Positions 5,399-62,012 of a stretch of DNA of 64,000 nt are shown here, piece by piece. The notes below the pieces were generated by a model. The model was given only the letters and a program-made list of their open reading frames with translations. It ran no database searches and was not told where the DNA came from. The stretch is from positions 62,270 to 126,269 of the IMG/VR virus record IMGVR_UViG_3300026484_000157; one strand, 5' to 3'. A program made the translations under genes and the position numbers. This DNA is from a virus. Each line of letters begins with the position of its first letter. Position 1 is the stretch's first letter.

Positions 5399-6807
5399 TG
5401 TATCAATTACCAATACTTAAAACTATAATAGAATCACCAGATTCGGTTTCACTAAATGTGATCAATGAAATAAACACTAGAAAAGATATGATATTTTTGA
5501 ACTCATCAACATCTTGTTTATTTGATACTATAAAAACATTCTACCAAAAGTATAAAAAACCACCTACAAAAGATTATCTAGAATCAATGTATGCAACCGA
5601 GAAGGATAATGAAGGTCATGAGGCATTTAAAGAGATTTATGCAGATGACATTGCCTTATCTGATAATCTTTTAGCAGTTTCAGATTTACAATTCCATTTT
5701 GGTCTGAAAACTATGATAATGAGAGTGCAAAAAGAATACAATGATAAGATAAAAATGACAAATCTTACTGACATTCAAGATGTTGCAAAAGAATTTGGGG
5801 CACAACTATCGGAGATTAATCGAAATGCATCAACATCTAATAAGGCTAAATATCGATTTGATAAAGAAACTGATGCAAGAAAAGAACTAGAAGAATATTA
5901 TAATAAAATGGAAGAATCAGGTTATGTAATTTCAAAAACATCAATAGAAAAAATCGATGAGATCTGGGGTGGTATCCAAAGAGATGATATGATAACAATA
6001 GGTGGATATACAGGGCAAGGTAAATCAACATTAGCAAGATATCTTGCATATTTACAAATTTTAGATGGTAAAAATACGGTATATATAACTACTGAAATGA
6101 CAAAAGAGTCAATTAGAGCCTATTTTATTTCAATGCATGTTAATAATAGAAAAATATGGGGTTATGGTAGACCATCAGTTTCAACTAAATCAATATTAAC
6201 AGGGGATATGACTGCAGAACAGAAAGAATTTGTTATAGAAGCATCTGAGGATTTACATAACAATCCAAAATATGGTATATTGGAGATTATTGAACCAGAT
6301 ACTTATAAGTATACCATATTGGATGCATTAGATGAAATTCAATCTATCCATAATGATGATTTTCCTATTCATCTACTGATTTGGGATTACCTAACAAATA
6401 TGAAACCAAGAGAGAAATACAGTCTTGGGAACATGAGAGAAGAATATAACAAGTCAATCTCTGATGCAAGAAGAGTTCTGCTTAATTTAGAAATACCATG
6501 GGTTGCTTGTGCACAAGTATCAAGGGGTGGATATAATGACTACATTAAGACTGGGAAGTATACCATCGATGCATTATCTGATTTCAACGAATATGATAGA
6601 TCATCTACAAAGGTAACCTTTGTTGGTCAAACTCCTGAAATGAAACAATCATCTACTTTTGAAATACAAAATGCTAAGAGTAGAAATACACCTCTATTTG
6701 AACCAATCAAAATGGTACAAGATCCAACATCAGGACTATTTCATTCTAACATATCTAATATTGATAAAGAAGATACTATGGTAATATTAGATGAACTAGA
6801 AATCTAG
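5398..6807 (+). CDS. dnaB: DnaB-like replicative helicase
   Basis: Walker A GYTGQGKST, YITTEM, IWDYL, AQVSR, KSRN. Confidence 0.88.
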   Translation: MYQLPILKTIIESPDSVSLNVINEINTRKDMIFLNSSTSCLFDTIKTFYQKYKKPPTKDYLESMYATEKDNEGHEAFKEIYADDIALSDNLLAVSDLQFHFGLKTMIMRVQKEYNDKIKMTNLTDIQDVAKEFGAQLSEINRNASTSNKAKYRFDKETDARKELEEYYNKMEESGYVISKTSIEKIDEIWGGIQRDDMITIGGYTGQGKSTLARYLAYLQILDGKNTVYITTEMTKESIRAYFISMHVNNRKIWGYGRPSVSTKSILTGDMTAEQKEFVIEASEDLHNNPKYGILEIIEPDTYKYTILDALDEIQSIHNDDFPIHLLIWDYLTNMKPREKYSLGNMREEYNKSISDARRVLLNLEIPWVACAQVSRGGYNDYIKTGKYTIDALSDFNEYDRSSTKVTFVGQTPEMKQSSTFEIQNAKSRNTPLFEPIKMVQDPTSGLFHSNISNIDKEDTMVILDELEI

Positions 6808-6866
6808 TATTAAAACTTCCACATTTTGTTTTTATAAATCAGTATAAATAAAATGTGGAGTTAATT

Positions 6867-7415
6867 TTGGAACTAAAAACACGAATAAAAAGAAATGCCA
6901 ACCTTGTATTGCTACTACTAGCACTTTCAACACAAGCAACTGCTAAAGAAGATCTATTAAAAGAACTTAATAATCTAACCCCAATTCAGAAGGCTATAAT
7001 GCTAAAGACTTTCAATAAGGCTAGACAATTTAATTATGAATATACAATGACTGCAATTGCTTGGCAAGAGTCAAAATTCGGTAAATATAAAATCAACCTG
7101 AATGATCCATCATTTGGAGTATTTCACAATCTGATATCTACAGTTCAATTAAGACATGATTCAAGAGGATCATGGGCTAGATCAAGATTAGCTGAAAGAC
7201 TTATGATAGACTACGATTTTAGTTTCACTGAAGCATTATCTGAGCTGAAATATTGGGAGAATTATTGGTCTAACAAAAGAGTACCAAAGAAATGGAGTCA
7301 TACAATTGGTAGTTATAACGGTGGGTTTACTCCAAACATGAGTTATACTGAAAAGATTAAATCAAAAATTAGAGCACTCAAAACATACTTCAAAAACAAA
7401 GGAATAACATGGTAG
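6867..7415 (+). CDS. Lysozyme-like / lytic transglycosylase
   Basis: AIAWQESKFG catalytic Glu motif, SYNGG, hydrophobic N-terminus; TTG start at 6867 chosen because GGAG precedes it. Confidence 0.75.
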   Translation: MELKTRIKRNANLVLLLLALSTQATAKEDLLKELNNLTPIQKAIMLKTFNKARQFNYEYTMTAIAWQESKFGKYKINLNDPSFGVFHNLISTVQLRHDSRGSWARSRLAERLMIDYDFSFTEALSELKYWENYWSNKRVPKKWSHTIGSYNGGFTPNMSYTEKIKSKIRALKTYFKNKGITW

Positions 7416-7573
7416 ATACATCAAACTACAATTCACTGTATGAAGAATATAACAAACTAAGGAGAAAGAATTATTTGAGTGAGGATGAAATTAAAAGAAT
7501 GCATCAAATATTCACTCCTGATTTTAAGAAATATTATATCAATAAATACACGAAGGAGAATAATAATGGTTGA
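7409..7573 (+). CDS. Small hypothetical protein (54 aa, not in ORF track)
   Basis: AAAGGA SD then ATG; overlaps both neighbours. Confidence 0.55.
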   Translation: MVDTSNYNSLYEEYNKLRRKNYLSEDEIKRMHQIFTPDFKKYYINKYTKENNNG

Positions 7574-7925
7574 AACTATAAAAAGAAGAATAAAGAAAGA
7601 AGACAGATTTCTAGAGATACTAGACTCAATGAGGAACCCCCAAATTTCTATAATAAGATCTGATGTAGGTGTTCCATCAGTTAATATATGTGCGATTGCA
7701 CAGGATGGAATATATGAGTACCAATATAATCATTCAGGAGTAATAGGAATAGATTCTTTGTTGGAAAATTTATCACATAGAATGCAACCGACTGATTACA
7801 TAGTTGAGGAAGATACTAGATCAAGAATAATATCACACATTGTTGATCTATCAAATAAACTAGATACTAACGATCTTCATGACTTAGTTCACACTATTAA
7901 GTCAAAATATCGATTTAAACTATAA
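7566..7925 (+). CDS. Hypothetical protein
   Basis: AAGGAG SD before ATG 7566. Confidence 0.6.
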   Translation: MVETIKRRIKKEDRFLEILDSMRNPQISIIRSDVGVPSVNICAIAQDGIYEYQYNHSGVIGIDSLLENLSHRMQPTDYIVEEDTRSRIISHIVDLSNKLDTNDLHDLVHTIKSKYRFKL

Positions 7926-7953
7926 CATATTACAACATAACAAAGGATTCGGA

Positions 7954-8628
7954 ATGGAAAAAATAATAGAACAAATGGCACATCTACAACATGCACTAAA
8001 TTCTAAGATACACCCAGAATGGTATAAGCAAGGAAATGACTGGGATACTGCAATCATGGTTGAGTCAGCAGAGTTGTCAGATTCTCTGCAATGGAAATGG
8101 TGGAAAAATATGGATGACGATTGGTCAAATGTAGAAGTGGAATTGGTAGATTTATTTCACTTCATACTATCTAAAATGATAGAAAAGAATAAGATGAATA
8201 TTGTGAACAAAGTGATAACTAGAGCACTTACAACATTCCAATTATCAAAGCCAATTGATGACAATGATATGAAAAGAGAACTAGTGCTTATGTTCAACAA
8301 ATCACTTGTACAAGCTACATTGGAAGATAAAATGCATGATGCAATTATGTATTGGTATAAAATGTGGCTTACTATTGGTAAAACAAAAGAAGATATCTTG
8401 AAACAATATTTTGTCAAGAACATTCTAAACACATTTAGACAAGACAATGGTTATAAAGATGGAAGTTATATCAAAGAATGGGTAGGTAAAGATGGGAGAA
8501 AATATGAGGACAATGTAATTGCATTTTACATTGCAGATGATTTAAAATTAGATGACACATTTCCAGATGAATTTGCTAAGGCATTGGATGAAGTTTATGC
8601 AGATACCAAAATTCATCATCTCAATTAA
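7954..8628 (+). CDS. dut: Dimeric all-alpha dUTPase (Campylobacter type)
   Basis: VESAEL, WKWWK, VELVDLFHF, KNILNTFRQDNGYK, EDN motifs. Confidence 0.9.
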   Translation: MEKIIEQMAHLQHALNSKIHPEWYKQGNDWDTAIMVESAELSDSLQWKWWKNMDDDWSNVEVELVDLFHFILSKMIEKNKMNIVNKVITRALTTFQLSKPIDDNDMKRELVLMFNKSLVQATLEDKMHDAIMYWYKMWLTIGKTKEDILKQYFVKNILNTFRQDNGYKDGSYIKEWVGKDGRKYEDNVIAFYIADDLKLDDTFPDEFAKALDEVYADTKIHHLN

Positions 8629-12031: not shown

Positions 12032-12066
12032 ACCTCAGCACAATTTCAGCTGAGGTGTGGTATAAT
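12032..12066 (+). promoter_or_regulatory. Hairpin followed by host-type extended -10 promoter (TGGTATAAT)
   Basis: ACCTCAGC/GCTGAGGT stem at 12032-12056; TGnTATAAT at 12058-12066. Confidence 0.55.
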
Positions 12067-12100: not shown

Positions 12101-12167
12101 TAGTATTAAAACTTTTGAAATTCAATTTTATAGGAATATAAGAATTAAACAAATCAAGGATAACAAC
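12101..12167 (+). promoter_or_regulatory. Conserved phage promoter plus leader (TAGTATTAAAA-N17-TATAGG...AAGGATAACAAC)
   Basis: Related copies near 3203, 4779, 6805, 13161, 13681, 19445, 20396, 22951, 32124, 36877, 43365, 48433, 49373, 53492, 55938, 57699, 57758 and 61948, all with exact 17-nt spacing. Confidence 0.85.
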
Positions 12168-13172
12168 ATGGCAACAAGAAGAGACTTAGACAGAACAATT
12201 TCGGCAATCGCATCAGGTATTTTACAAGTTATTGATACATATAATTTAACAGGTGATCTTCCATCAGGAAAAGATACAAACATTGAACCAAACATTGCTA
12301 AAATTTTCAACAAAGAATTTGGTTGGGCAATTGGTAGAGGCGATTATGAAACTGCAATCGATATGATCTCTGAATGGTACCAAATTTTGTTCCTTGAAAG
12401 AGCAGATAAATTGCTTGGGGAATATACACCATCTTGGGAAGAAGGACATATATCACCATTATTGGGATATTTAAAGCTTTCAATGATAAGAGCAGCACAA
12501 CAAGTATCAATTAAATTTACTAAAATTAGACAAAGAGAACAACAAGTCAACCCAATTGATGATGAATCTTACGATGATGCACTTAACAGAATAATGAACA
12601 CTCCAAAAAGTGGAAAGATCATTCATGAAAATGACCCTATGATATTAGAGTTGGAAGAAATTATCGAGTATTATGAAGCTAACCCATCTGAGAACAATGA
12701 TAAGAAACTTAAAAAAGCAAAAGAAAAACTAGATCTAATATTCAACCCAAAGAAAGTACTTCATGATGTAGATGTATTCTTAAATAAAGAGTTTGATGTT
12801 ATTGATGAAATTGCTTATGAGAGAATTCTTGCTGACCTTAAAAAGATAATCAAAGGTAGACAAAATTATGAAATCCAAATTAAAATTCTAGATTTATTGT
12901 TAGCAGACTTCGCTCCATCTGAAATTGCAAGATTATTAAATGTATCAGCAGCAAAAATATCACAAAGAAAGAAAACATTACTTGATGATATCACAAAACT
13001 AGCAAAAAAATATAGTGAAGAGGGTGATTCAACATTAGATGAGTTCCTTGAGGACAGACTAAGTAAGAAAAATTCTACTAAATCAAAATCTGGTGTTACT
13101 GGTAATAGAAAACAAGAGACTAATGTTGAGTGTCTTCTAACAACAGCAGCACTAATGGGAATTAAATTATAA
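12168..13172 (+). CDS. Putative phage sigma-factor-like protein
   Basis: C-terminal region-4-like HTH (FAPSEIARLLNVSAAKISQRKK); helical region-2-like N-half. Confidence 0.55.
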   Translation: MATRRDLDRTISAIASGILQVIDTYNLTGDLPSGKDTNIEPNIAKIFNKEFGWAIGRGDYETAIDMISEWYQILFLERADKLLGEYTPSWEEGHISPLLGYLKLSMIRAAQQVSIKFTKIRQREQQVNPIDDESYDDALNRIMNTPKSGKIIHENDPMILELEEIIEYYEANPSENNDKKLKKAKEKLDLIFNPKKVLHDVDVFLNKEFDVIDEIAYERILADLKKIIKGRQNYEIQIKILDLLLADFAPSEIARLLNVSAAKISQRKKTLLDDITKLAKKYSEEGDSTLDEFLEDRLSKKNSTKSKSGVTGNRKQETNVECLLTTAALMGIKL

Positions 13173-13680: not shown

Positions 13681-13746
13681 TTATTAAAAAGACCCAATTC
13701 AACTTTTATATAAAAATATAAACAAATCAAAAAAGGATAAGACAAA

Positions 13747-14145
13747 ATGGAAAATAATACAGCAATCCAACTTTCAGAACTACACAAACTAATGGAGATA
13801 AAAGATCAGCTTTCTAAAATGAAAGTATCAGAGCTAAATAACATTCTCATAGATAAAACTGCTGATTTAATGGTTAATGCAGATCTTAGTCAAATGGAAT
13901 ATGCAAAACATATTCAAAATGAAATTAATTCGCTTGTAACTGTAACTGCTCCACTTTCTGCTAAGCAAATATCAGAGTTGCCTATTAAAACTATAGTATC
14001 ATATGTAAAGGCATATTATGTAGTTACTAAAATTGACTGGAATAAAAATTATAGTGATGATGATGCAATGATTGATGTTGATTTCGCTTTTTATTCAGGA
14101 TTTACTGCAGAATTCTCAGAATTTGTAACTGGTATAATGGACTAA
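13747..14145 (+). CDS. Hypothetical protein
   Basis: Promoter and SD upstream. Confidence 0.6.
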   Translation: MENNTAIQLSELHKLMEIKDQLSKMKVSELNNILIDKTADLMVNADLSQMEYAKHIQNEINSLVTVTAPLSAKQISELPIKTIVSYVKAYYVVTKIDWNKNYSDDDAMIDVDFAFYSGFTAEFSEFVTGIMD

Positions 14146-19440: not shown

Positions 19441-19507
19441 TTTATAGTTAAAACTTCTAAATCCTGATTTTATAAGAACATAACAAATTAAAACTCAGGA
19501 TAACAAC

Positions 19508-20398
19508 ATGTCAGAATTTAAAAAACTAACACTTAGACAACTAGGCTTCATGGATCTATGGATGGAGACGATCAGAGAAAATAATAGAGTGAACCATAAA
19601 ATTGCACAAAGTTCAATATATTGGGGAACTCATATAGATACAACGACTGATTTCTTGTCGTTATTATCAATGTCAGAGGAGCTACCAACATTCGATTACA
19701 ATAGAATGACATTATCACACATAATAGACTCATTAGTAGAAGTCAATGCAATCATAGTATTAGATCCAATCAAGATGATATATAAAGTAACTAACGATAT
19801 GATAATACATATGTCAACAAAGAAAACAAGATTCGAGAGAGGGCAAGATAAAATATTCACAGCTGTCAATCTTAAAATATTTAGAGATTGGGTTAACAGC
19901 ACAAGAATAACTGGAGATACTATAGTTAGTTACAACTCATTCATGGACTCAACATCTGATGAAACATTTAGAGAAATTAAGGAATCTCTTAAAGGCTGTA
20001 AAGAACATAAGAAATTCCTCAAAGGTAAAAGCCAAGAGTTCTTAGACAAATATGAAGATGGATTTTTAGCAAAAATGTCCTATAGCCATCTGAGATACCT
20101 TGTAACCAGATTAAGCGATGCTAAGCTACTGACTAAATATAAACCAAAAGGAACAAGAAACATTTATACAGTTACCCCAGAATTTGTTGATGTATTAGGA
20201 AGACATAAAATCGCTTTTGCTGAAACTCCAGTTTATACTTATATAAAACCAAAAAAGAAGAGAGTAAAAGAGATCGAGCTAAAAACTGAGGATCTAGATA
20301 CATTAATAGAAGAACTGATGAATATGAGAAGTGGTAATTCTAACAAATGTAGAATAGATGCTGATAATACCATCATTGAGTTAAGTTTCAAACAATAG
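19508..20398 (+). CDS. Hypothetical protein, possible winged-helix repeats
   Basis: Behind conserved promoter and leader; two L..L....+..Y.VT segments. Confidence 0.55.
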   Translation: MSEFKKLTLRQLGFMDLWMETIRENNRVNHKIAQSSIYWGTHIDTTTDFLSLLSMSEELPTFDYNRMTLSHIIDSLVEVNAIIVLDPIKMIYKVTNDMIIHMSTKKTRFERGQDKIFTAVNLKIFRDWVNSTRITGDTIVSYNSFMDSTSDETFREIKESLKGCKEHKKFLKGKSQEFLDKYEDGFLAKMSYSHLRYLVTRLSDAKLLTKYKPKGTRNIYTVTPEFVDVLGRHKIAFAETPVYTYIKPKKKRVKEIELKTEDLDTLIEELMNMRSGNSNKCRIDADNTIIELSFKQ

Positions 20399-20459
20399 TA
20401 TTAAAATTTTTGAAATTCAATTTTATAAGAACATAAGATAAAAATCAAAGGATAACAAC

Positions 20460-20852
20460 ATGAAATTAACAAAAAAACAATCGGACATTTTAAACAACTG
20501 GCTTCAAATAACTCAGGGTAGTTGTGGTGCAGATACATGGGACAAGCTTGGACAAGATAATCACAGCTTCGCAGACATAAATGATATAACTGAAGTTTCA
20601 AAAGATTACAGTAAACCTCAAATTATTGGAATTGTAGCATCATTGGTAGACAAAGGTCTTATAATGCTAGATCCAGATGCTACAAAAAACAATAAGAGCA
20701 AAGTATGGTGGATTTGTGATGAAACGATTGATATGATGATCAAACTGGAATCTGATGAGTCATCAGAACCAAAGAAAGAAACCGCAGAACCAGAATTTGA
20801 TGACTTCACTGATGATGGCTCATTAGAAACACTAATGGAATTGGTGGGTTAA
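20460..20852 (+). CDS. Hypothetical protein, possible winged-helix
   Basis: Conserved promoter and leader; QIIGIVASLVDKGLI. Confidence 0.55.
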   Translation: MKLTKKQSDILNNWLQITQGSCGADTWDKLGQDNHSFADINDITEVSKDYSKPQIIGIVASLVDKGLIMLDPDATKNNKSKVWWICDETIDMMIKLESDESSEPKKETAEPEFDDFTDDGSLETLMELVG

Positions 20853-22953: not shown

Positions 22954-23015
22954 GTATTAAAACTTCGGCTACCTAATTTTATACAAACATAAGATAAAAA
23001 TTAAAGGATAACAAC

Positions 23016-23363
23016 ATGAGAAAATCAATCGCTTCAAACAACGAGATTAAAGAGCTAATAGCAGAAATGGAAAAGCTACAAGCACAAAAATCGGTTATTG
23101 AAAAACAATATAATTCAATCAAAAAGACTATTACTGACAGACTAATCGCTCCAGATTTAAATGATAAAGACACTGTTTATGAATATGAATTAGGTCTTGA
23201 CTCAAATAAAATTTTAAGATACGAATTAGTACCAACAACTAGATTTGATACTAAAAGATTTACTGCAGAATGCCCTGAGCTTAAAGCAAAATATACAAAT
23301 GCAACAGTAAATAAAGTCTTCAAAATTATTGAGGAGAAATCAGAAGAGAAGGTGGAAAAGTAA
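23016..23363 (+). CDS. Hypothetical phage protein
   Basis: Conserved promoter and leader; coiled coil then RFDTKRF...PEL. Confidence 0.6.
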   Translation: MRKSIASNNEIKELIAEMEKLQAQKSVIEKQYNSIKKTITDRLIAPDLNDKDTVYEYELGLDSNKILRYELVPTTRFDTKRFTAECPELKAKYTNATVNKVFKIIEEKSEEKVEK

Positions 23364-31499: not shown

Positions 31500-31706
31500 A
31501 TGAATGATGACAAAATAGAACAACCAGATACAGGATTTATTGAAGCATATGGTCAAGTTTCTATGGATGACAATACACAATACCCTAGAGGTGAGAGACC
31601 AGAATTTATTCATGTTGATGAAGTTCCAACTACAAGAGTGAACCTTACTGAACTGACTCGAACTAAGAACTATACAGTGGAAGATGATGATGGTTACATT
31701 GACTAA
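31500..31706 (+). CDS. Small acidic hypothetical protein
   Basis: SD-led 68-aa ORF. Confidence 0.5.
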   Translation: MNDDKIEQPDTGFIEAYGQVSMDDNTQYPRGERPEFIHVDEVPTTRVNLTELTRTKNYTVEDDDGYID

Positions 31707-32178: not shown

Positions 32179-32188
32179 AGGATAACAA

Positions 32189-36879: not shown

Positions 36880-36991
36880 TATTAAATCTACACTTCCTTA
36901 TTTTTATAAAACAACATATCAAAATAAGGAAGAACAAAATGCCTGATGAAATACCAACTACTCCAAAATCAATATTAAATGGAGATTATTA

Positions 36992-38269
36992 ATGACAAAT
37001 TTTACATTAAAGAACTTTCAATCCCATAAAAACACCACTATAACTATTGATGGATTTACAATTATAAAAGGGTCATCTAATGGTGGGAAATCTGCAATAA
37101 GAAGAGCAATATCATGTCTATTATTTAATGAATATGATAAATCTTATATAAGAAACTCGGCAACATCACTAGAATTGGAACTAGATGATGGAACAAACAT
37201 CTTCAAACTTTCAAAGCCTAAAAATTCATACCTAGTGAATGGAAAGGAATTTCCAAAAATTGGTAAAGATGTGCCTGAGAAATTCAAACAGCTCGGCATT
37301 GACTATTTTGTTGCAGATGGCACGAAACATAATCTAATATCTAGTTCACAACTAGATCCTTTATTCATGCTAACATATTCTGATCAAGATAATACAAGAA
37401 TTCTAAACAAGATATTCTCTGTTGAAAGATACGAATTGGCATCTAAGGATGTGAAGAAAGATAAAGATAATCTAAGAAAAGAAAACAAGATATTTAGAGA
37501 ACAACTATCTGAAGAAAAAGGTCATAGAAACTTACTATCTGATTCTCTTGACCTTACTACAAGAGCAATAGAAGTAATGGATAAACTGGAGTCATTAGAT
37601 AATCACAATCTTGCTCTGTCTAAATATAATTCATTGTATTACGAATCAAGAAAAATAAAAGATTCAATCACTGAATTGGAGGAACTAGTTAGTAGATACA
37701 CTCTTCTTAAGAACAGCATAAGTAACATAGATAAGCATCTAGGAGATGAACTACAATTATCCAATGTTCAAGATCAATCTTCCAAATTAGTGAGTTTATT
37801 TGGATATTATGATAAGTTAATGAACATTCAGGTTATTTCTTCATTTTTGAAACAATTAGATAATATTGACATTGCCAAAAGCCATTTAACTGATATTTCC
37901 ACTAAGATTAATAAAGGCATGATGTCAATAGACAAAATCGATACAATAGTAAGACAGAGTGATTCTGCAAGAGATAAGATTAACAAAATCACAGAATTCA
38001 CTGCTCTTATTGATAAACTTACCACTAACAATTTAGAACATAACAAAACATTGATGGCTCTGAACGATCTGTCATCAAAAAGTGATCAATTCACTCAACA
38101 TAATGATAACATTATGGTTATTGCAAGAACTATTGACATTATAGCAATTTATGATAAGAAAAAGGATCAATTAAGTAGAATTCCTTTAAAGATTAAAGAG
38201 CTAGAAGAACAACTTCCAGAAACATGTCCGACATGTGGACAAGATATAAAGGATAATCAATGTCATTAA
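36992..38269 (+). CDS. sbcC: SbcC/Rad50 N-terminal half
   Basis: LKNFQSH, GSSNGGKS Walker A, Q-loop, coiled coil, zinc hook CPTCGQ at the C-terminus. Confidence 0.85.
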   Translation: MTNFTLKNFQSHKNTTITIDGFTIIKGSSNGGKSAIRRAISCLLFNEYDKSYIRNSATSLELELDDGTNIFKLSKPKNSYLVNGKEFPKIGKDVPEKFKQLGIDYFVADGTKHNLISSSQLDPLFMLTYSDQDNTRILNKIFSVERYELASKDVKKDKDNLRKENKIFREQLSEEKGHRNLLSDSLDLTTRAIEVMDKLESLDNHNLALSKYNSLYYESRKIKDSITELEELVSRYTLLKNSISNIDKHLGDELQLSNVQDQSSKLVSLFGYYDKLMNIQVISSFLKQLDNIDIAKSHLTDISTKINKGMMSIDKIDTIVRQSDSARDKINKITEFTALIDKLTTNNLEHNKTLMALNDLSSKSDQFTQHNDNIMVIARTIDIIAIYDKKKDQLSRIPLKIKELEEQLPETCPTCGQDIKDNQCH

Positions 38270-43162: not shown

Positions 43163-43426
43163 TGTTTTAATTTCCATTTTATGACTGATAGGTAATGAGT
43201 TCAGCATCCATTATTTATTTCCACGATAGCATGCTAGTGGCAGTCAATCCGTACTGAACTCACTCGTTTGTTAAGTTCATATATTCCTCCAAGAATTAAG
43301 ATAAAAGATCCCCTAAGCTTCAGCAACTTAGGGTGATTCTTATAAAACTCACTCAAAACAAATCCAGTTAAAACTACAAAAATCTCCTTTTATAAAACAA
43401 TAAGTTCAAAAACAAGGAGAAATAAC

Positions 43427-43891
43427 ATGAACCAAGAACAAAATAACATTTACATCAAAGTAGCATCTTCTCATTTAGATGAAGCACCAGTTTTAACAGC
43501 ACCGATAACAAAAGAGGATAAAGCATTCTTTGTAATAGTATCAGGTAGTCAAGGTACTAAAGTACTAGGTATTCTTACTGAACCAGAAGTTCTTGAAATT
43601 GCTAAAGGTCAGCATAATGCAATTGCTGAGGGTACAAGAGGCACACTAGCTATTCCAGAAGGTACACCATTAGAAGTTGTAAATGCTGATTTGCTTAACA
43701 CTTACACTATGATCCCACTTGAAGGTATGCAACTTCAATCAATTACAAGTCAATTTACTGTTGAAGAGACTGATGCACCTGTTGAACCAGAGACTGAAGA
43801 GTCAGAAGCTAAAGAAGATGATCTTCCATCGGAAGAAGACCATGAAGCACCAGTTGATGACTGTGAATGCGACACAGAGTGTAACTCTTAA
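43427..43891 (+). CDS. Hypothetical acidic protein
   Basis: Conserved promoter with AAGGAGA SD. Confidence 0.6.
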   Translation: MNQEQNNIYIKVASSHLDEAPVLTAPITKEDKAFFVIVSGSQGTKVLGILTEPEVLEIAKGQHNAIAEGTRGTLAIPEGTPLEVVNADLLNTYTMIPLEGMQLQSITSQFTVEETDAPVEPETEESEAKEDDLPSEEDHEAPVDDCECDTECNS

Positions 43892-48434: not shown

Positions 48435-48481
48435 TTAATCAACCCATCTATTGATCCTATAAAAAAACAAAGGATCAATAG

Positions 48482-48954
48482 ATGAAAGCAAAAACAAATT
48501 TAGAAAATAACCTCAACACTGCAATCCAAAAACTCCAACAGATTAAAACTGAAATCTACAATCAACCAATTTTACAATACGAATTGGAACAAATCATCAA
48601 GAATAATACAGTAAAAGAAGCAACTAGACTAATCTTACAGAGATATACATTAATAGAAAATGAAGGAGACAAATAATGGGAATGTTCGATTACACATATC
48701 ATAAATGTCCAGAATGCAAGAGAATTGCAGAGGGTCAATCAAAGGCTTCGGAATGTTCATTAAAAAGGTATTACTTTGGTGATATAAAAGATGAGTTGCC
48801 AGAAGTGGTAAATGAGTTCACATATGAATCTGAAGAATTTTACCCAGCAAATTTTGAAATACTAGCAGAGGCAGAGCGATTTGGTCTTAAGTGTGACCAT
48901 TGTGGATATAAGGCAAATGTGAAGTTACTATCAATAGTGGTGGATATATCATGA
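48482..48954 (+). CDS. Two small hypothetical proteins (48482-48676, 48676-48954 Zn ribbon)
   Basis: SD-led; MGMFD...CPEC...QSK...CDHC. Confidence 0.55.
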
Positions 48955-49379
48955 ACTTCAATCGTGAAATTAAATTTAAAGCATTAGGACATCCTGATAA
49001 ATCATCTAAAAATAGATGGATATATGGCACTAATATCTATGCCAATGAGAACACAGATATGGATATTCATTCATTGGCAGCATACGAAAGACTAATGAGG
49101 GGTAACCATTTAAATGCAAAAACTAGATGTCAGTTCACTAATTGTTTCTCTAAAAATGGCGATGAACTATATGAGGGAGATATCATCTTATGGAATGGTA
49201 TTGTAAACTACATAAAATTGGTAAAAGGAGCATACTCATTGGTAAATAACAAATCGAACAACTATAGATATTTATTTGTGGTTGCAAACAACTGTGAAAT
49301 TATCGGCAATATTCACATTGAAAATAAATACTATAAAGTAACAGACTCTGGTGAGGTAATATTTGGAATTGGATATTAA
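48951..49379 (+). CDS. YopX family protein
   Basis: REIKFKA, QFT...KNG.ELYEGDI, EIIGNIH. Confidence 0.8.
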   Translation: MNFNREIKFKALGHPDKSSKNRWIYGTNIYANENTDMDIHSLAAYERLMRGNHLNAKTRCQFTNCFSKNGDELYEGDIILWNGIVNYIKLVKGAYSLVNNKSNNYRYLFVVANNCEIIGNIHIENKYYKVTDSGEVIFGIGY

Positions 49380-49436
49380 AACTTTTATCATTTGATTTTA
49401 TAAGAACATAACAAATCAAAAATCAAGGATAACAAC

Positions 49437-49727
49437 ATGATATTAGTAATAGACATTAAATCACTGGCAGTTTCTTCAATAGAAGCAATAAATGATAATC
49501 ACATAACAAAGCACAGTCCAATCAAAAGATTGATGAGAATGCATCAAGCAATTAATTTAGACATATTAGAAAATCAAGAATACGATTTCCTGAAAATAAC
49601 AGATATAAATGCCCAAGACTATAATACAGTAAAAGAATTTGTAACAGCTAGATTACAAGAGATTTATTGGAAAAATAGATCGGAAAATGCTTTTAATACA
49701 CTTCTTCAAACAATAGGAGAGCAATAA
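49437..49727 (+). CDS. Hypothetical protein
   Basis: Conserved promoter and leader. Confidence 0.6.
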   Translation: MILVIDIKSLAVSSIEAINDNHITKHSPIKRLMRMHQAINLDILENQEYDFLKITDINAQDYNTVKEFVTARLQEIYWKNRSENAFNTLLQTIGEQ

Positions 49728-52573: not shown

Positions 52574-54126
52574 ATGGGAAAAATATACACAAACACTGAC
52601 AAAATACAATTTTCGGATCTTCCACCTTTTGTAAAAGAGATGGTAACAGAACTTATAAATGACCAAAATTTTTACAAAGTGACTTATGAGGGTCATCTTC
52701 CAATAGATTACATTTATGTCATTATTGACAAGAAATACTTATTCAAGAAATTTAAGAATCCAACCATAGTATTATCCACATTGGCTTATGGTGATGAGTC
52801 TGAACTCCCAATATTACCACACAATGGATTATTAATTGGTGCACACATAACAGATCATGACTATTCCAATAACAGAATAAGAATGAATACTATGCAACAA
52901 GTAAACAAGTGTATTATTAAAACCACACCACCAGAAGACTGTACAGACAAGAGGATCTATCTTGGTCACTACACAGATTAAAAGGAGAAACAAAAATGAA
53001 GAAGATATTAATAATATCATTGCTAACAGTTAGTTTATTTGCTTGGGGTAAGGACAAAATTAAGACTCAGGCAAGAGAAGAAGCACAATCAATATGTATT
53101 GCAGGATTTTTATTTGCAATAACTACAGTTCATAACGGAAGTGGGACTGGTGTGTCAATAACACAAATATTTAGAGAAGGTCTGAAAGATAACTATCCAA
53201 ATAGACCAATAAAATGTAATAATCACAAGAAAGGAAAATAATGCCAAGTTATAAAACAATAGAGATATCGGTTGATGAAGGGAGATATAGATTTCAACAA
53301 GCAGATGATTCTAACAAAATCAAATTAATTGAGTCATCAACAGGTAAAACTATTGAAGTTTTTGATATTGATTTAGAACACAAGTTGCTAGGATCTGGTG
53401 GTGGATTCCTAAGTCTTAATGAATCTTTTGGTTACAATGTTTCTAAATATAAATCTCTTGGGGAGGTAATTGAATATGCTCACAAAATGTATAGTTAAAA
53501 TTTTGGCTATTTAATTTTATAAAGACATAACAAATTAAAACATTCAAGGATAACAACATGGAACAACTATCAAAATCAGATAGAACTAAGGTTAGAAAAT
53601 ACTACATCAAGAAGCTAGGAAAATCTTCAACTGATTCTGAAATTAAAGAATTATGTGATTCTGTTACAACAGTTAGAGAAGCAAAAATCGAAATAAACAA
53701 GATTGCGAGTACAAGATAATGAAGTTCCTTAAAGTTGAAGAATCTTATTTAATGGCAATGATTGAAAAAGTTGCTACAATGCAGGAAGAAATTTCATCAC
53801 TGAGAGATGAAAATTATCGAATTAATAATTTGGCAGGAGATTTAGAAGATTACAATAAGCATCTTGTAAAAAGACATAAGACTGATTGCGATCACATTGA
53901 AACTCTAAGACATGCTAATAAAAGATTGACGATTACAAATAAATCAAATAATTTGCTTATTGCTTCATTGAATGATAAATATAAGTCAGTTAAAGGTTAT
54001 AAATCGTTATATAATTCGATAAAACACAAAATTGCGATTATCGAGTCACAACCAGAACCTGCAAGTTGTAAAATTATAAAAATTACCGATTCATTAGAAC
54101 AAATGGGGGTTGAAAAATATGCATAG
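52574..54126 (+). CDS. Small hypothetical genes (52574-52981, 52996-53241 secreted, 53241-53498, 53558-53719, 53719-54126)
   Basis: SD-led or coupled ORFs; 53558 follows the conserved promoter. Confidence 0.5.
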
Positions 54127-54847: not shown

Positions 54848-54904
54848 TATGAATAACATGCTTTATTTTGGATATCCTAAATTTAACAACAAAAGGATAT
54901 CCAA

Positions 54905-55081
54905 ATGGAAAATTACAAAGCAGCAGTAGAATTCGCTCAGGCGATAGTAGATGAAGCTACAAATCTTGAGGAAAAACATACTAAATCTGGATCTGCAAGA
55001 CAGAGAAAAAACTTAAATGAAATCAAAAAACTTGTTACTGGTGCTAAGAATGAACTTCTAGCAAAAGATAAAGGAGAATAA
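54905..55081 (+). CDS. 58-aa basic helical protein, Hc1/histone-H1-like
   Basis: K.TKSGSAR.RK.LNEIKKL; SD AAGGA; absent from ORF track. Confidence 0.45.
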   Translation: MENYKAAVEFAQAIVDEATNLEEKHTKSGSARQRKNLNEIKKLVTGAKNELLAKDKGE

Positions 55082-55933: not shown

Positions 55934-55999
55934 TTCATAGTTAAAACAGTTATCCTTTGATTTTATAGGAACATAAGATAAAAATCAAAGGATAACAAA

Positions 56000-56809
56000 A
56001 TGTCAAAACAACCAACAATCTCACTAGAACAACTTCAAAAGTCAGTGCCATCAGCATTCACAACATCAAGATACTCAAAAGCTTCAGAAAAATACCAAGT
56101 TGCAAACACATCAGAAATCGTTAAAGAGTTCATGAAAAGTGGATGGGATATTACTCGAGCAACACAATCTATGGTAAACAACCCAGAGAAACAAGGTTAT
56201 CAGTTCCACTCAATAAGAATGAGAAATCAAGATATAAAAATCAGTGAAAATAATAAAGAGTTTGCTGAAATTGTAATTACTAATGGTCATGATACAAATC
56301 ACCTACTTACAATCAGTATGGGTATTTATAGACAAATTTGCTCAAATGGACTAGTAGTTTCGGATTCTTATATTGAGCCTATCAAAATAAAACATGTTGG
56401 GGAGACCTTTAAAACTGAATTGGCTCAGGCAATAACTTATGCATCTGAAAAAACAGAGGATTTAAAAAGATTGATGAATACAATGAAAGATAAAGAAATT
56501 ACCGATGAACAGCAACTAATGATGGCTAAGCAATTCTTTGAATTCAGAATGGAAAAAGAACCAACTGATACACAAATTGATCAAATACTAACGGCTCATC
56601 GTGAAGAAGATGATGGTAACCAACTATGGGTAACATACAACCTGCTTCAGGAAAATATTATCCAAGGTAAATTCACATATGAAGTTAAGAAGCTGATAAA
56701 AGATAAAAAGACAAAGATCTCTGAATACCAAGCTAAGGCAATATCTTCTGTTGCAAAAATACAAGACCTGAATAAAAAGATGTTCGATAGTGCGATGAGT
56801 TATGCTTAA
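56000..56809 (+). CDS. DUF932/DUF945 family protein
   Basis: NGHD, G.YRQICSNGLV, H.G, R.ED....LW..YN..QE. Confidence 0.82.
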   Translation: MSKQPTISLEQLQKSVPSAFTTSRYSKASEKYQVANTSEIVKEFMKSGWDITRATQSMVNNPEKQGYQFHSIRMRNQDIKISENNKEFAEIVITNGHDTNHLLTISMGIYRQICSNGLVVSDSYIEPIKIKHVGETFKTELAQAITYASEKTEDLKRLMNTMKDKEITDEQQLMMAKQFFEFRMEKEPTDTQIDQILTAHREEDDGNQLWVTYNLLQENIIQGKFTYEVKKLIKDKKTKISEYQAKAISSVAKIQDLNKKMFDSAMSYA

Positions 56810-57675: not shown

Positions 57676-57822
57676 CCCACAATAAAATCTCTCACAAATA
57701 GTATTAAAATTCCAATTATCCAATTTTATAAGAACATAAGACATAAATCCAAAAACCTAGTATTAAAATTTTCGGTTTTTGGATTTATGAGGAAATAGAA
57801 AATAAAATTCAAGGATAACAAC

Positions 57823-58461
57823 ATGAAAGCATTTAACGGAATAGACACAAACGGAAACATCTTAGAAATCACTCACAATGATAACAACACTCACTTTTAT
57901 TGCAATAATAAGAGAATCAAAGGGTCATTGGCAATTGAAATGAAAGAAAGATTCGAATCTTCTAGAGTTATTACAGCATCTAAGAAAGAAAAAACAGAGG
58001 TAATGGTTGATTTAGCAAAAGAAGGATCATCAGATACTACTGCAATTGTATTTAATGGGACAATTGATCAACTATTCAAACTAGTATCTGAAACTAAATC
58101 AATAAAAGATAAAATGGCACTATTACAATCAAATTTAACAAGTGAAATTCAACTTTTATTAGGATGGAGCAGAAAATCAGAACTTTCAAAAGGATTCTCT
58201 TGGAAGAGAATTAACAAGTTCATGGAAAAATGTAAAACTAATGAGGACTGCAATGCTAAATTGGTTAGAACTGAAGACTGTAACCCTGAGGTTATAAATA
58301 GTCTAGTTGCTAATGGTAAACCGAGATTCGAATTAAAAGATGAAGAAAAAATTCAAGTTATTAATTCATTACCATTAGGGAAAGAAAAGCTATATTGTGA
58401 TGCTATATCAAGAAACCTTAAATTAGGATTATCTGATAAACAAATAAATAGCTTAATATAA
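57823..58461 (+). CDS. Hypothetical protein; C-half resembles a phage ligase N-terminal DNA-binding domain
   Basis: Tandem promoters upstream; S.KDK..LL...L.LGLS.K.IN similar to the ligase at 32538. Confidence 0.45.
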   Translation: MKAFNGIDTNGNILEITHNDNNTHFYCNNKRIKGSLAIEMKERFESSRVITASKKEKTEVMVDLAKEGSSDTTAIVFNGTIDQLFKLVSETKSIKDKMALLQSNLTSEIQLLLGWSRKSELSKGFSWKRINKFMEKCKTNEDCNAKLVRTEDCNPEVINSLVANGKPRFELKDEEKIQVINSLPLGKEKLYCDAISRNLKLGLSDKQINSLI

Positions 58462-58474: not shown

Positions 58475-58759
58475 ATGGCAAATTACAGAGAGTTGAAAAA
58501 GAAATATCAAAATGATCCAGTAATGTTAGGTTTCGTTTCTTGTGAAGGAGATCTGGACTGTATAAATGAAAAACTGCATGAAGCAGGTAATGGATCAGAT
58601 TTCACATTACAAGAAATTGCCGACATTTTAGGAATAACAAGAGAAAGAGTGAGACAGATTGAATCTAGTGCAATTAAAAAATTAAGACACCCTAAAGTTG
58701 GTCGGTCTTTAAATACATATGTGCATGAGCACATAACTGATACACCTAATGGATTCTAG
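58475..58759 (+). CDS. Stand-alone sigma-70 region 4 protein
   Basis: FTLQEIADILGITRERVRQIESSAIKKLRHP. Confidence 0.88.
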   Translation: MANYRELKKKYQNDPVMLGFVSCEGDLDCINEKLHEAGNGSDFTLQEIADILGITRERVRQIESSAIKKLRHPKVGRSLNTYVHEHITDTPNGF

Positions 58760-58832
58760 TAATAGAATCCATCTTAAATCAAGATTGTGCACAACTTACA
58801 TAAAAATGAAATCAAATAAAAAAAGGACTCAA

Positions 58833-60230
58833 ATGGAAAATGAAACAATATTAGTCGAAGGTAAAATCAATATTTTGCTTGATCATCTATATGGCTCATC
58901 TGCTAAAGGGCAAGTATGTGCAGCGATAGCAGATAAAGAACGACCAAGTATTCTTATTGCTAATCATAGCACATCGGCATCACATACAGTAATGGAAGGG
59001 GATGAAGAATTTGTATTTAAGGCTCTACCATCTGCAACATTCTTATGTAAAACAAGAGATGACTACAATCCATCAATATTTATGGCAGCATCATCAGGAT
59101 TTGAAATTGATCAAGTTATCAAAGAGATGAAATGGATCAATAATCCAGAAATTAAAGTTTATGTACATCCATATGCAGTTATAGTTCTTCAGGAACATAA
59201 AAATCTAGAAGCAGGTCTTAATAGAGATGGGTCTTCATCTGATAACAGTGGAACATTACATCTTGGATCTACAATGAGTGGACAATCTTATGCATTTGCA
59301 GATAAAATGACAAGAAGATCACCATCATCATTAGCGAAGGATTATGCTGAGGAACTATATAAACATAATATTATAGTTATGGCTACACCATGGGCATTCC
59401 AACTACAATTATTATCAGAATTAGCAAAGGATGATGCAACTGCTCTTGCTGAAATGCCACAAGGATTTCCATTGTCAATTGATCATGGACCAGAGTTTCC
59501 TTATTCAACATTCAGAAACATTACACCTATGCAATTATTGGCAGACTTAGGTCTTAATGAAGCATATTTAGGATCAGTTATTGGTAATATTAGATCACTC
59601 CCTATCAGAGTCAGTAACAGATTTGTTGGTAATAACATGGACAATGTAATGTTATTCGCTAAATTTGATGCTGAAAACAAGATGAGTGAGTCATCTTGGA
59701 ACACACCAGAGCAACTTGGAATGACATATTCAGATGTAAATGCAATCACATATGATCTATTGATGGGTAATGAAAAACGATTCAAAAATTGGATCATAAC
59801 AGACATTAAAGGTGTAACTGGAACATCTGGACCATTTGAAGAAGATATGGAGGAGATTTCATGGAGAGAATTATCTGATCATTTAACCTCAATTGCAGGT
59901 AAAGATGTAAATGTTGAAGAAATTACTACACTTACAAAATTAAATAGAAGAATAGCAAAAATAGCCGATGAGAGATCATTATCTATAGATATGCTGATGA
60001 AATTTATGGTAGCAGTTAATCCTACTCATCTATCAATCACATTCTTGAACTATATTGATCCAAACTTGGAAGGTGCTACTTCAATAGAGGAGATCAACAA
60101 AAGTGAGATATTTAATGATTGGTCTATTAGAGCAATTGAAGACTTGAGAGAAGCATATAATGGTGAGGTATTTCCAAAAATTACTGCTCTTCAAACTGGT
60201 AAATATTTAGAAAATGTAATATTCATTTAA
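58833..60230 (+). CDS. purZ: PurZ-like (adenylosuccinate synthetase homologue with Asp-to-Ser switch)
   Basis: YGSSAKG, SHT, VHPYAVIVLQEH, GSTMSG, QGFPLSIDHG..PYST.R, PIRVSN, SGP, TTLTKL.RRI, TFLNY. Confidence 0.8.
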   Translation: MENETILVEGKINILLDHLYGSSAKGQVCAAIADKERPSILIANHSTSASHTVMEGDEEFVFKALPSATFLCKTRDDYNPSIFMAASSGFEIDQVIKEMKWINNPEIKVYVHPYAVIVLQEHKNLEAGLNRDGSSSDNSGTLHLGSTMSGQSYAFADKMTRRSPSSLAKDYAEELYKHNIIVMATPWAFQLQLLSELAKDDATALAEMPQGFPLSIDHGPEFPYSTFRNITPMQLLADLGLNEAYLGSVIGNIRSLPIRVSNRFVGNNMDNVMLFAKFDAENKMSESSWNTPEQLGMTYSDVNAITYDLLMGNEKRFKNWIITDIKGVTGTSGPFEEDMEEISWRELSDHLTSIAGKDVNVEEITTLTKLNRRIAKIADERSLSIDMLMKFMVAVNPTHLSITFLNYIDPNLEGATSIEEINKSEIFNDWSIRAIEDLREAYNGEVFPKITALQTGKYLENVIFI

Positions 60231-60242: not shown

Positions 60243-60851
60243 ATGAGATTAACATGTAAGAAAGAATTTAGAGGTCTTGGGCTAAAACCCAATGACCAAG
60301 TGGATGCAACAATCCAAGACGGTGAGTATTTAATCGATGGTGCAGTATTGATTTCAAAAGCGACTCTAGACGAGCATTTTTCAATATCATGCGATGCTAA
60401 TGGCAGTGAAGATTCTTCTGTGCAACAGAACCAAACAGGAATGCAAATGTTTATTGGTACAAAAACAATAATGGCACGACCTCAGCAAAATGGTGATAAA
60501 GAGGGTTATGAAGTTGTCTATGAGGACGGATACAGATCGTGGTCACCTAAAGAGACATTTGAAAAAGCATACAGATTAGATGAGAATTTAACATTTGGTG
60601 ATGCAGTTCACCTAATGAAATCTGGTCATAAAATGTCTAGAGCAGGATGGAATGGGAAGAGTATGTTTGTATTCTTAGTGCAGGGATCAACATTCAAGGT
60701 AAATAGACCACCATTAAATCAATTTTATTGCGAGGGTACTGAAGTAACTTATCAACCACATATTGATATGAAAACTGTAGATGGTACAATCGTACCATGG
60801 TTGGCTTCACAAACAGATATATTAGCAGAAGATTGGGGAGTTGTACTATGA
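60243..60851 (+). CDS. DUF2829 / Tad2-like anti-defence sponge
   Basis: TFGDA...MK.G....RAGWNGK.MFV...PWLASQTDILAEDW; upstream GY.V.YEDGY.SWSPK domain. Confidence 0.8.
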   Translation: MRLTCKKEFRGLGLKPNDQVDATIQDGEYLIDGAVLISKATLDEHFSISCDANGSEDSSVQQNQTGMQMFIGTKTIMARPQQNGDKEGYEVVYEDGYRSWSPKETFEKAYRLDENLTFGDAVHLMKSGHKMSRAGWNGKSMFVFLVQGSTFKVNRPPLNQFYCEGTEVTYQPHIDMKTVDGTIVPWLASQTDILAEDWGVVL

Positions 60852-61435
60852 AATACTTGTCAGTAGATATAGAGACAACTGGTCTTAATCCAGAAAAATG
60901 CCAAACATTGGAGGTATCTTTTGTAGTAGAAGATACCAATAATATAAAACCACTGGAAGAACTTCCAAGATTTACTGTTTGTATTGAACATAAGAGGATT
61001 CATGGAGAGCCTTATGCTCTCTCAATGCCTTATAATGCTTCAATTATAAACGATATGAAGAACAAATTGGAAGATAGAAAATTCAATTTCATTAAGCCTG
61101 ATGAATTTTATTCATCTCTTTTACTATTCTTATCAAAAAACGATTTACTTGATGATAAGAATAAGGCAACTTTAAATATAGCAGGTAAGAATTTCCAAGC
61201 ATTTGATAAGCCATTCATAATGAAATTGCTAGAATCTGATCCACAATGGAACAATCAAATAAGATTTAGATATCGAGTTATTGACCCAGCAATTCTATTT
61301 GTGAATTGGAAAGATGACTCTGCTCTACCTGATTTGAATACATGTAAACAGAGAGCAAATATTAGCGGTGAGGTAGCTCATGACTCATATAGTGATGCTC
61401 TTGATGTAATCAAGCTTCTAAGAAGTACTTATTAA
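60848..61435 (+). CDS. DEDDh 3'-5' exonuclease
   Basis: VDIETTGL, GKN..FD, H.S..DA. Confidence 0.85.
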   Translation: MKYLSVDIETTGLNPEKCQTLEVSFVVEDTNNIKPLEELPRFTVCIEHKRIHGEPYALSMPYNASIINDMKNKLEDRKFNFIKPDEFYSSLLLFLSKNDLLDDKNKATLNIAGKNFQAFDKPFIMKLLESDPQWNNQIRFRYRVIDPAILFVNWKDDSALPDLNTCKQRANISGEVAHDSYSDALDVIKLLRSTY

Positions 61436-61517
61436 CTCAATAGGTACCTACATCTTATAAAACTGAAGAGAGATAATAAAGGAGCTACCAAGTCTCATAA
61501 TAAAACTCTCTTCAAAT

Positions 61518-61595
61518 GTCACGATAGACGGTTATTAGGAAGACCTCACTTATAATAGTAAGATAGCACTGGTTCGAATCCAGTTCGTGACACCA
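61518..61595 (+). tRNA. tRNA-like RNA with aberrant D and anticodon arms (identity undetermined)
   Basis: Acceptor GTCACGA/TCGTGAC, discriminator A, encoded CCA, T-arm ACTGG-TTCGAAT-CCAGT. Confidence 0.7.
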
Positions 61596-61623
61596 CCTAA
61601 AAATAAATACAAAAGAGAATAAT

Positions 61624-61950
61624 ATGAATAGAAAAATGAACTTATTAATGGCATCAGCTATGGTCGGTATGGCTTCAATGGGGATAAGCCCACAATATAA
61701 TCCTATGAGATTACCAAGAGTAGGCACTAAAGATCACGAACCTCAAAGTGACGAAGATATACAGAATATGTTATCTAAGGCTGAAATCAAAAGACAAAGA
61801 AAATTTGATAAGAAGTGTAATTCATGTCGTTTCCTTGTTAAAAACTGTAACCACCATGATGACTGTTTGTACTTTTGTAACCATCCAAGTAATCCAGAAG
61901 ATACTGAAGGTAACAACAGAATGAGTATTTGCCCAATTTTTAAAATGTAG
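61624..61950 (+). CDS. Hypothetical Cys-rich protein
   Basis: C-terminal CxxC...C...C..C. Confidence 0.5.
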   Translation: MNRKMNLLMASAMVGMASMGISPQYNPMRLPRVGTKDHEPQSDEDIQNMLSKAEIKRQRKFDKKCNSCRFLVKNCNHHDDCLYFCNHPSNPEDTEGNNRMSICPIFKM

Positions 61951-62012
61951 TATTAAAATTCCAAAAATTCGATTTTATAGGAACATAAGAAATAAAAATT
62001 GAGGATAACAAC

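Follow-up and report, generated by a model that had tools for sequence, protein, structure and literature searches.

Promoter spacers as candidate anti-Shine-Dalgarno arms at about half of the repeated cassettes in a phage genome

In a viral genome recovered from a metagenome labelled as hydrothermal vent, many small genes of unknown function are preceded by a cassette of about 65 nucleotides (nt), which ends in a Shine-Dalgarno (SD) sequence and a start codon and carries the boxes TTAAAA and TATA around a variable 17-nt spacer. An earlier note on this DNA had described the spacer as repeatedly complementary to the ribosome-binding site of the gene behind it. The locus raises the question whether such pairing exceeds chance, and whether it could make the translation of a gene depend on where its RNA starts. 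The DNA analysed, called the window here, is a stretch of 64,000 nt, bases 62,270-126,269 of the single 126,269-bp IMG/VR record IMGVR_UViG_3300026484_000157, which is rated complete by CheckV. We found that at eight or nine of about 16 cassettes the hairpin between spacer and SD region is genuine and has strong statistical support. We propose, with a probability of roughly one half, that the cassette is a promoter, that its spacer has been shaped into an anti-SD arm at these eight or nine sites, and that translation there is tied to the gene's own promoter.

Results

The cassette has the form tAGtaTTAAAA-N17-TATA-aGAACATAAga...AAGGATAACAACATG and stands ahead of about 16 genes. The pattern TTAAAA-N15-19-TATA was found 16 times in the window against 6.9 ± 2.2 expected, a count reached by none of 100 shuffles, and 15 of the 16 copies are on the plus strand; the N17 form occurs 15 times on the plus strand of the whole genome and never on the minus strand. 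Thirteen of these 15 lie at a fixed 35-45 nt upstream of an SD and start codon, and the remaining two are w57704, with a long leader, and w48760, within an open reading frame (ORF) (w denotes a window position; other cassette positions are those of the genome). Three near-motif copies are present at w36882 (TTAAAT), w48435 (TTAATC) and w13162 (TTAAAT). Conservation extends beyond the boxes used for the search, to tAGta upstream, cTt and aTTT at the spacer ends, aGAACATAA downstream and the leader ...AAGGATAACAACATG, with a mean column identity of 84% over nine cassettes. Every copy but one is held by the replication half of the genome. Since the element is over-represented, strand-specific and placed ahead of genes, with two boxes that do not vary and keep a strict distance of 17 bp while the spacer between them changes, we infer that it is a two-box promoter of the phage. 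Left out of the 13-site tests below were w48760 (in an ORF, with no downstream SD or start codon), w10741 (N18, in an ORF) and w57704 (its long leader, which forms a separate hairpin, shows no SD plus start codon in the 80 nt searched).

All seven pairings that had been called good are present, and most run longer than had been listed. The geometry is the same at all hairpin sites: a 5' arm within the spacer, reaching as far as the first T of TATA; a 3' arm over the GGA of the SD; and between them a 12-25-nt loop that contains the TATA box and the conserved downstream GAACATAA box. The stems span 7-17 bp. Each cassette was folded against 200 dinucleotide shuffles, and the exact-motif sites were also compared with 1000 shuffles of the spacer only; all coordinates in this and the following paragraphs are on the plus strand of the window.

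The strongest spacer/SD hairpin is that of w55941 (55941-56002), where GTTATCCTTTGATTTT (55949-55964) and AAAATCAAAGGATAAC (55981-55996) form 16 perfect bp (-18.4 kcal/mol, z -7.16, 0 of 200 shuffles as good) ahead of the ATG at 56000 of a DUF932 protein. At w6810 (6810-6869; TTAAAA 6810-6815, TATA 6833-6836) the arms 6814-6831 and 6846-6862 cover the SD GGAG at 6857-6860, ahead of a probable TTG start at 6867, with 17 bp including one G-U (-18.3 kcal/mol, z -6.15, 0/200; spacer-shuffle p = 0.001). The near-motif cassette w48435 (48435-48484; TTAATC-N17-TATA) has arms at 48445-48458 and 48471-48484, and its 3' arm spans both the SD and the ATG at 48482; the stem of 14 bp (-18.5 kcal/mol, z -9.70, 0/200) is longer than that of the earlier note. 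The other near-motif cassette with a hairpin, w36882 (36882-36941; TTAAAT-N17-TATA), pairs 36893-36908 with 36917-36932 over the SD GGA at 36928 in 12+3 bp (-13.2 kcal/mol, z -7.11, 0/200). Its ATG at 36939 opens an upstream ORF of 17 codons (36939-36992) that ends in a TAATG overlapping the start of an exonuclease-like gene (36992-38269), which suggests coupled translation of the two.

The remaining stems are shorter or less regular. In w19448 (19448-19510) the arms 19461-19472 and 19489-19501 form 12 bp with one bulge over the SD GGA at 19498, before the ATG at 19508 (-9.4 kcal/mol, z -4.70, 0/200; p < 0.001), and in w43368 (43368-43429) a 7-bp hairpin TCTCCTT/AAGGAGA reaches from 43383 to 43420, before the ATG at 43427 (-7.6 kcal/mol, z -3.25, 0/200; p = 0.011). 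The weakest hairpin, of 7 bp with a 25-nt loop, belongs to w32126 (32126-32191; arms 32144-32150 and 32176-32182, ATG 32189), a cassette situated within the 3' end of the ORF 31684-32178; it is equalled by 35 of 200 shuffles (-4.9 kcal/mol, z -0.85), and no segment of the 200 nt upstream pairs better with the SD region than its spacer (spacer-shuffle p = 0.012). Three further sites had been described as imperfect. One of them, w49376 (49376-49439; arms 49385-49399 and 49419-49432, ATG 49437), beats the shuffles with 14 bp including a bulge and one G-U (-7.3 kcal/mol, z -2.58, 5/200; p = 0.021), and the other two, w22957 and w61953, stay at shuffle level. Outside the window, the cassette at genome position 15178, which had not been listed before, carries a hairpin of 15 bp (-13.2 kcal/mol).

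Taken over the whole set, seven of 15 cassettes were equalled by none of 200 shuffles (z -3.3 to -9.7), and six, namely w12106, w13684, w20401, w22957, w53495 and w61953, folded no better than their shuffles. The spacer-only shuffles gave p <= 0.021 at seven of the 13 exact-motif sites and 0.17-0.79 at the other six. Pairing no better than composition-matched shuffles had been named in advance as the outcome that would speak against the idea; the summed duplex energy was -118.3, compared with -62.1 ± 6.8 for shuffled spacers (z = -8.3) and -47.4 ± 6.9 for random genomic 21-mers. When the spacers were permuted among the leaders the sum was -87.4 ± 7.7, and the observed value was reached in 0 of 20,000 permutations, so the spacers fit their own leaders in a way that a general richness in pyrimidines would not explain. 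When a 21-nt window was slid over the 200 nt upstream, no better partner for the SD region than the spacer emerged at 10 of 16 sites. Of 14 spacers, 8 contain the triplet TCC, compared with 8.9% of genomic 17-mers (p = 7e-6); for TCCTT the figures are 4 of 14 and 0.8%. Among the 182 genes with an assignable SD, from which five relaxed-motif genes were excluded, the SD was paired upstream with a probability above 0.8 at 6 of 13 promoter genes and at 16 of 164 motif-less genes (Fisher p = 0.0018).

The TCC occupies spacer positions ranging from 3 to 15, and the arms comprise seven different sequences in differing registers, which argues for repeated selection of the pairing rather than one inherited hairpin. 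Evident paralogues among the hairpin cassettes are only 15178, w49376 and w55941, whose spacers are near-identical; the same holds for the spacers of w12106 and w20401. Other lookalike spacer pairs are w22957 with w53495 and w57704 with w61953.

No anti-SD arm was found in w12106 (12106-12170; z 0.06, 94 of 200 shuffles as good, spacer-shuffle p = 0.49), w13684 (13684-13749; z -0.13, p = 0.79), w20401 (20401-20462; z -0.69, p = 0.51) and w53495 (53495-53560; z 0.17, p = 0.63), and the spacer of the last ranks poorly as a partner of the SD. Pairing is at chance level in w22957 (22957-23018; z -0.07, p = 0.75) and w61953 (61953-62015; z -0.25, p = 0.17). All of these except w13684 are of canonical form. 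The nearly identical spacers of w12106 and w20401 contain the palindrome TTGAAATTCAA (12112-12128 and 20407-20423). A tandem arrangement without an anti-SD arm was recognized by direct reading at w57704 (57704-57825; start codon 57823), where a full copy at 57704 is followed by a degenerate second copy TAGTATTAAAA at 57758; the latter lies in the loop of a 13-bp leader hairpin AAATCCAAAAACC/GGTTTTTGGATTT (region 57699-57825), its spacer is the 3' arm of that hairpin and its TATA box has decayed to TATG. With about half of the cassettes lacking an arm, five of them unlisted in the earlier note (w12106, w13684, w20401, w53495 and w57704), the complementarity described in the earlier note holds for the other half only, and its description as a regulon-wide design was overstated. 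Two variants of w53495 were seen on one contig of another run, of low depth (5.6): A>G at 53513 (spacer position 13), which turns an A-U pair opposite the leader into G-U, and A>G at 53523, two bases past TATA.

The consequence of the pairing for two kinds of RNA was predicted by folding. The long RNA began 60 nt before the -35 box and ended 15 nt beyond the start codon, and the short RNA was started 7 nt past the TATA hexamer (in one row the anchor was misplaced). In the long RNA the predicted probability of an unpaired SD is <= 0.05 at 9 of 16 sites, including w53495, where the SD pairs with a segment far upstream instead of the spacer; at w49376 the SD is just half paired (0.48). In the short RNA the corresponding values range from 0.39 to 0.99 over all 16 sites, and the leaders have almost no structure (0 to -4.7 kcal/mol). 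Any start past the TATA box eliminates the whole 5' arm. Since the source is labelled hydrothermal vent, the persistence of the stems under heat matters, and at 60 °C the predicted energies are -1.0 to -3.0 kcal/mol for the weaker and -5 to -11 kcal/mol for the strong stems, so the strong ones are predicted to persist to 50-60 °C.

RNA that enters the cassettes from upstream genes would be expected, because the ORFs of any size in the window are all on the plus strand and terminators are scarce. Terminator-like sites numbered 6, 8 and 9 against 4.7, 6.1 and 6.1 expected, which is chance level, and only five are on the plus strand in w1-60000. Closest to hairpin cassettes are a terminator-like stem that precedes w36882 by 136 nt and a palindromic one that precedes w43368 by 35 nt, and upstream terminators fail to distinguish cassettes with a hairpin from those without.

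Sigma-70-type TTGACA/TATAAT promoters were not enriched, and the T4-like late motif (TATAAATA, TATAAAAA, CTATAAA) gave no convincing positional signal. An Rfam scan of the whole window returned no family at gathering score. The only two intergenic copies of TGGTATAAT, an extended -10 type, are at 12058-12066 (+) in the window and at genome position 59614, each in a large intergenic gap; the window copy lies after a CCTCAGC/GCTGAGG stem and before the w12106 cassette. Both are candidate host-type promoters.

A possible specificity factor is encoded at 58475-58759 (+). Residues 39-82 of this 94-amino-acid ORF are close to region 4.2 of primary sigma factors, including TRERVRQIE and KLRHP; Pfam Sigma70_r4 was matched with 48.7 bits (cut-off 24.1), and the top PDB matches were SigA/RpoD (E = 5e-10). 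Sigma70_r2 had no match in six frames of the whole genome, and the 212-amino-acid protein encoded upstream yielded no sigma-like match. The small protein could be a sigma-4 mimic or one part of a split sigma, acting in -35 recognition or at the beta flap. A search for a T7-type RNA polymerase gave no match and was uninformative, as control genomes were equally without a match. In the four sequencing runs compared, all consisting of DNA contigs, contigs of other organisms accumulate on 58475-58759.

The window has a G+C content of about 31%. PHROG and Pfam hits in it comprise two helicases, a DnaB-like helicase, a family-A polymerase, an ATP-dependent ligase, a UvsX-like recombinase and an exonuclease, and those in the other half of the genome a terminase, a ribonucleotide reductase, a dCMP deaminase, a Dda-like helicase and a tail sheath; on the basis of these hits the phage is assigned as a myovirus with its replication module in the window. 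A 23-kb contig from the probable source run continues past w62500 into the start of the record and reaches cassette 15178 16.5 kb further on; so either the genome is circularly permuted or circular, or the assembly closed it into a circle. No close relatives are present in the collections of phages, viral contigs and proteins that were searched. Megablast of the polymerase region against phages gave no match, tblastn with the polymerase gave at best 28% identity over 40% of the query, the ligase found nothing among viral contigs, DnaB found a single locus with 30% identity, and the 767-amino-acid helicase reached at most 28% identity among 5.8 billion proteins; the top match of the DUF932 protein was 60% identical, on a 2-kb contig. 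The promoter pattern was found at one locus in viral contigs and at least 120 single-match loci in metagenomes, and a leader 16-mer at 116 or more loci in viral contigs; among the matches listed, none carries a set of cassettes. These loci are chance hits, and the pattern used for metagenomes is too weak. Some sequencing runs contain 12-30% of the words sampled, a sign that strains may exist.

Other features lie near the cassettes. The protein at 6867-7415, downstream of the w6810 hairpin, gave only a sub-threshold SLT hit and nothing in PDB, so that a parallel to T4 lysozyme is unsupported. An adenylosuccinate-synthetase-like protein is encoded at 58749-60230 (+) (Pfam Adenylsucc_synt, 47.7 bits; PHROG 1211, 2-aminooxy adenylosuccinate synthetase, E = 8e-26), and the C-terminal part of the protein at 60243-60851 (+) matches the Thoeris anti-defence Tad2-like domain PF11195 with 92 bits (cut-off 25). 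A tRNA-like gene with an enlarged D region at 61518-61592 (+) scored 32.8 bits with the Rfam tRNA model (gathering 29) when a 261-nt stretch was searched alone, and was absent from the ARAGORN output and from the whole-window scan at gathering score.

Discussion

The reading we favour is that the spacer between the -35 and -10 boxes has been shaped, at the hairpin cassettes, into an anti-SD arm that fits the ribosome-binding region of the same gene. RNA arriving from upstream genes would carry both arms, and the SD, at w48435 also the AUG, would be held in a stem of 7-17 bp whose loop contains the -10 box and the start region. RNA from the cassette promoter would start in the loop, without the 5' arm, and present an open A-rich leader. 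The translation of each cistron would thereby be tied to initiation at its own promoter. The most likely benefit would be insulation: read-through, also late read-through out of the structural half, would leave each gene's output unaffected. Insulation is favoured over an early-to-late switch because the hairpin promoters are all of one class in the replication half. Of the earlier note, the arrangement of arm, loop and SD is borne out wherever a hairpin exists, and its proposed masking of read-through RNA is kept as the most likely reading; its regulon-wide scope is not kept.

The most likely function is of a kind known from phage T4. A T4 review gives four genes, e, soc, 49 and I-TevI, with hairpins that sequester the ribosome-binding site and whose 5' strand overlaps a late promoter (PMC3014915), which bears out the T4 precedent cited in the earlier note. 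As described there, the SD and/or AUG lies in a helix in RNA from upstream promoters, and the promoter lies within the hairpin DNA, so that its own transcripts lack the 5' strand and can be translated. An SD or start codon in a stable helix in the longer transcript is likewise predicted here, by the seven of 15 cassettes that beat all shuffles and the nine of 16 sites with a closed SD. According to the same review the T4 cases concern a handful of genes, a single-box late promoter TATAAATA and a contrast of early with late RNA, whereas the arm of this phage, known from sequence alone, lies in a two-box spacer and is found at eight or nine genes that share one promoter class and belong to the replication half. 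The scale would thus be larger and the promoter architecture different. Functionally the T4 gene set is the closest known system, and architecturally it is the promoter/stem-loop (PeSL) cassettes.

Several observations weigh against the favoured reading. Six or seven cassettes are without an arm, including most of those with the best-conserved flanks, and both the promoter identity and the start position are deduced from sequence. A column-wise covariation test, made over the nine most similar cassettes with the w55941 helix, stayed at shuffle level: the score was 0.108 against 0.098 ± 0.014, and 105 of 500 shuffles were as high. In that set only one pair varies on both sides (A-U 4, G-C 2, G-U 2). 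In the true register 66% of cells of the helix are paired against 30-55% when it is slid by 1-3 columns, a control that is biased because the structure was taken from one of the sequences. The hexamer at the TATA box is TATAAG, TATAGG, TATAAA, TATACA or TATATA, with T at position 6 in 0 of 16, and the lack of a final T is unusual for a sigma-70 housekeeping -10 box. The hexamer that ends at the first T of TTAAAA (TAGTAT, TATAGT, TAATAT etc.), on the other hand, has A at position 2 in 12 of 16 (p = 0.004). This TAnnnT hexamer could be the -10 box, which would place the whole hairpin within the primary transcript. SD-masking hairpins also occur without the motif, at least four times (w54905 and genome positions 20130, 52717 and 37976), for instance TTTGGATATCCT/AGGATATCCAAA, 12 bp at 54861-54907 (+) before the start at w54905, and in several of them a TAnnnT or TATAAA hexamer opens the loop. 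Masking is thus found beyond the cassette promoter as well. The phage may favour masked ribosome sites in general, with the spacer as the sole free sequence in short, cassette-filled intergenic gaps, and even then the dependence of masking on the start site would hold, from geometry. At four of nine hairpin sites the upstream gene comes close, its stop ending 5-6 nt before the arm (15178, w6810, w49376) or its ORF running through arm and loop (w32126), so a ribosome could open the base of the stem that pairs with the SD. One promoter class in one half of the genome also means that a simple T4-like early/late timing does not follow, and insulation, or coupling to upstream translation, would fit it too.

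What these points suggest can be set against the favoured reading. If transcription started upstream of the 5' arm, with TAGTAT or TATAGT as the -10 box, the hairpins would be part of every transcript and could serve as leader switches opened by a protein, a helicase, a nuclease cut in the AU-rich loop or temperature, or as stabilisers of the 5' end. The 5' arms would suit this, as they all begin at or after spacer position -1, past a start about 7 nt beyond the upstream box; so would the motif-less hairpins and the steep weakening of the stems with heat. We nevertheless rate an upstream -10 box lower than a start at TATA and regard this explanation as unlikely, though it is the most serious of the alternatives, because it leaves unexplained why TTAAAA and TATA are invariant and strictly 17 bp apart with a free spacer between them, as is typical of a two-box promoter, and because no -35-like box is conserved upstream of TAGTAT; in addition, stems of -13 to -18 kcal/mol on genes with a consensus SD would render these genes nearly silent. 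SD-masking stems are also known to mediate translational coupling in polycistronic RNA, where a ribosome that finishes the upstream gene melts the stem base and opens the downstream SD. The closing of a downstream SD by upstream pairing is common to both cases, the four sites named above fit, and the 5'-most bases of the arm are those that pair with the SD. At the other five sites, though, the upstream stop lies 10 (w48435), 13 (w36882), 15 (w55941), 20 (w19448) and 220 nt (w43368) before the arm, where by the size of its footprint a terminating ribosome would not reach it; most 5' arms are thus out of reach, and the coincidence of the arm with the promoter spacer is peculiar to the present case. 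Coupling as the main explanation appears somewhat less plausible again, and it is compatible with the favoured reading, since the promoter-started RNA would still be open.

The cassettes also resemble PeSL modules, which are reported for the T4-type phages RB49, phi1, PST and nt-1 as repeated conserved promoter boxes with a stem-loop, an SD and a start codon before many small genes of unknown function, the stem-loops being self-contained, usually G/C-rich and shown to terminate or attenuate transcription (PMC2839356, PMC4122927). In the account of one of these sources the stems often lie between -35 and -10 or over -10 (PMC2839356). Mobile modules of this kind, with the stems as attenuators or recombination hot-spots and the SD pairing incidental, would account for a conserved cassette of about 65 nt before many small genes and for the pairs and groups with near-identical spacers (w12106/w20401; 15178/w49376/w55941). 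The stems found here differ, however, in that the SD itself serves as the 3' arm, the loop measures 12-25 nt and no U-run comes after the stem; they do not show the G/C-rich stem, short loop and U-run of an intrinsic terminator, they are not among the results of the terminator scan, and the leader-by-leader matching of the arms would be unnecessary for attenuation or recombination. We consider this origin improbable. Inverted repeats acting in the DNA, as operators for a dimeric regulator or as N4-like hairpin promoters, would fit the position of the repeats around the -10 box and the presumed start region, but seven different arms offer no common operator, and the arms are 12-25 nt apart, well above the loops of a few nucleotides in N4 hairpin-type promoters, so that such a role is very improbable. 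Least credible is pairing by chance or composition between T-rich spacer ends and A-rich leaders: a TTTT/AAAA match between the two conserved boxes does form part of each stem, and six cassettes show no more than this, but the explanation is rejected by the composition-preserving shuffles, the cross-site permutation, the random genomic 21-mers and the positional scans.

A wider form of the favoured reading can be offered more tentatively, and we hold it to be somewhat less probable than that reading itself. The spacer would have been recruited at least seven times independently as an anti-SD arm, the start site would decide translation cistron by cistron, and insulation on a genome scale would replace terminators, perhaps through a phage-specific polymerase specificity factor. 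Such a factor is suggested by the atypical TATA box together with the phage-encoded sigma region-4-like protein.

Conclusions

In conclusion, the spacers of about half of the cassettes are matched to the ribosome-binding regions of their own genes, and this phage may use them as anti-SD arms. The masking of a ribosome-binding site by a promoter-containing hairpin is textbook knowledge for a few T4 genes and is not known as the repeated design of a whole promoter class; a full-text literature search for the class-wide version, within the collection of papers covered, returned the T4 review only. The genome offers eight or nine natural test cases of diverse sequence for the comparison of long and short leaders. 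If start-site mapping confirms the reading, a compact genome without terminators could set expression gene by gene, and promoter spacers, usually seen as free sequence, could carry a second code at the RNA level.

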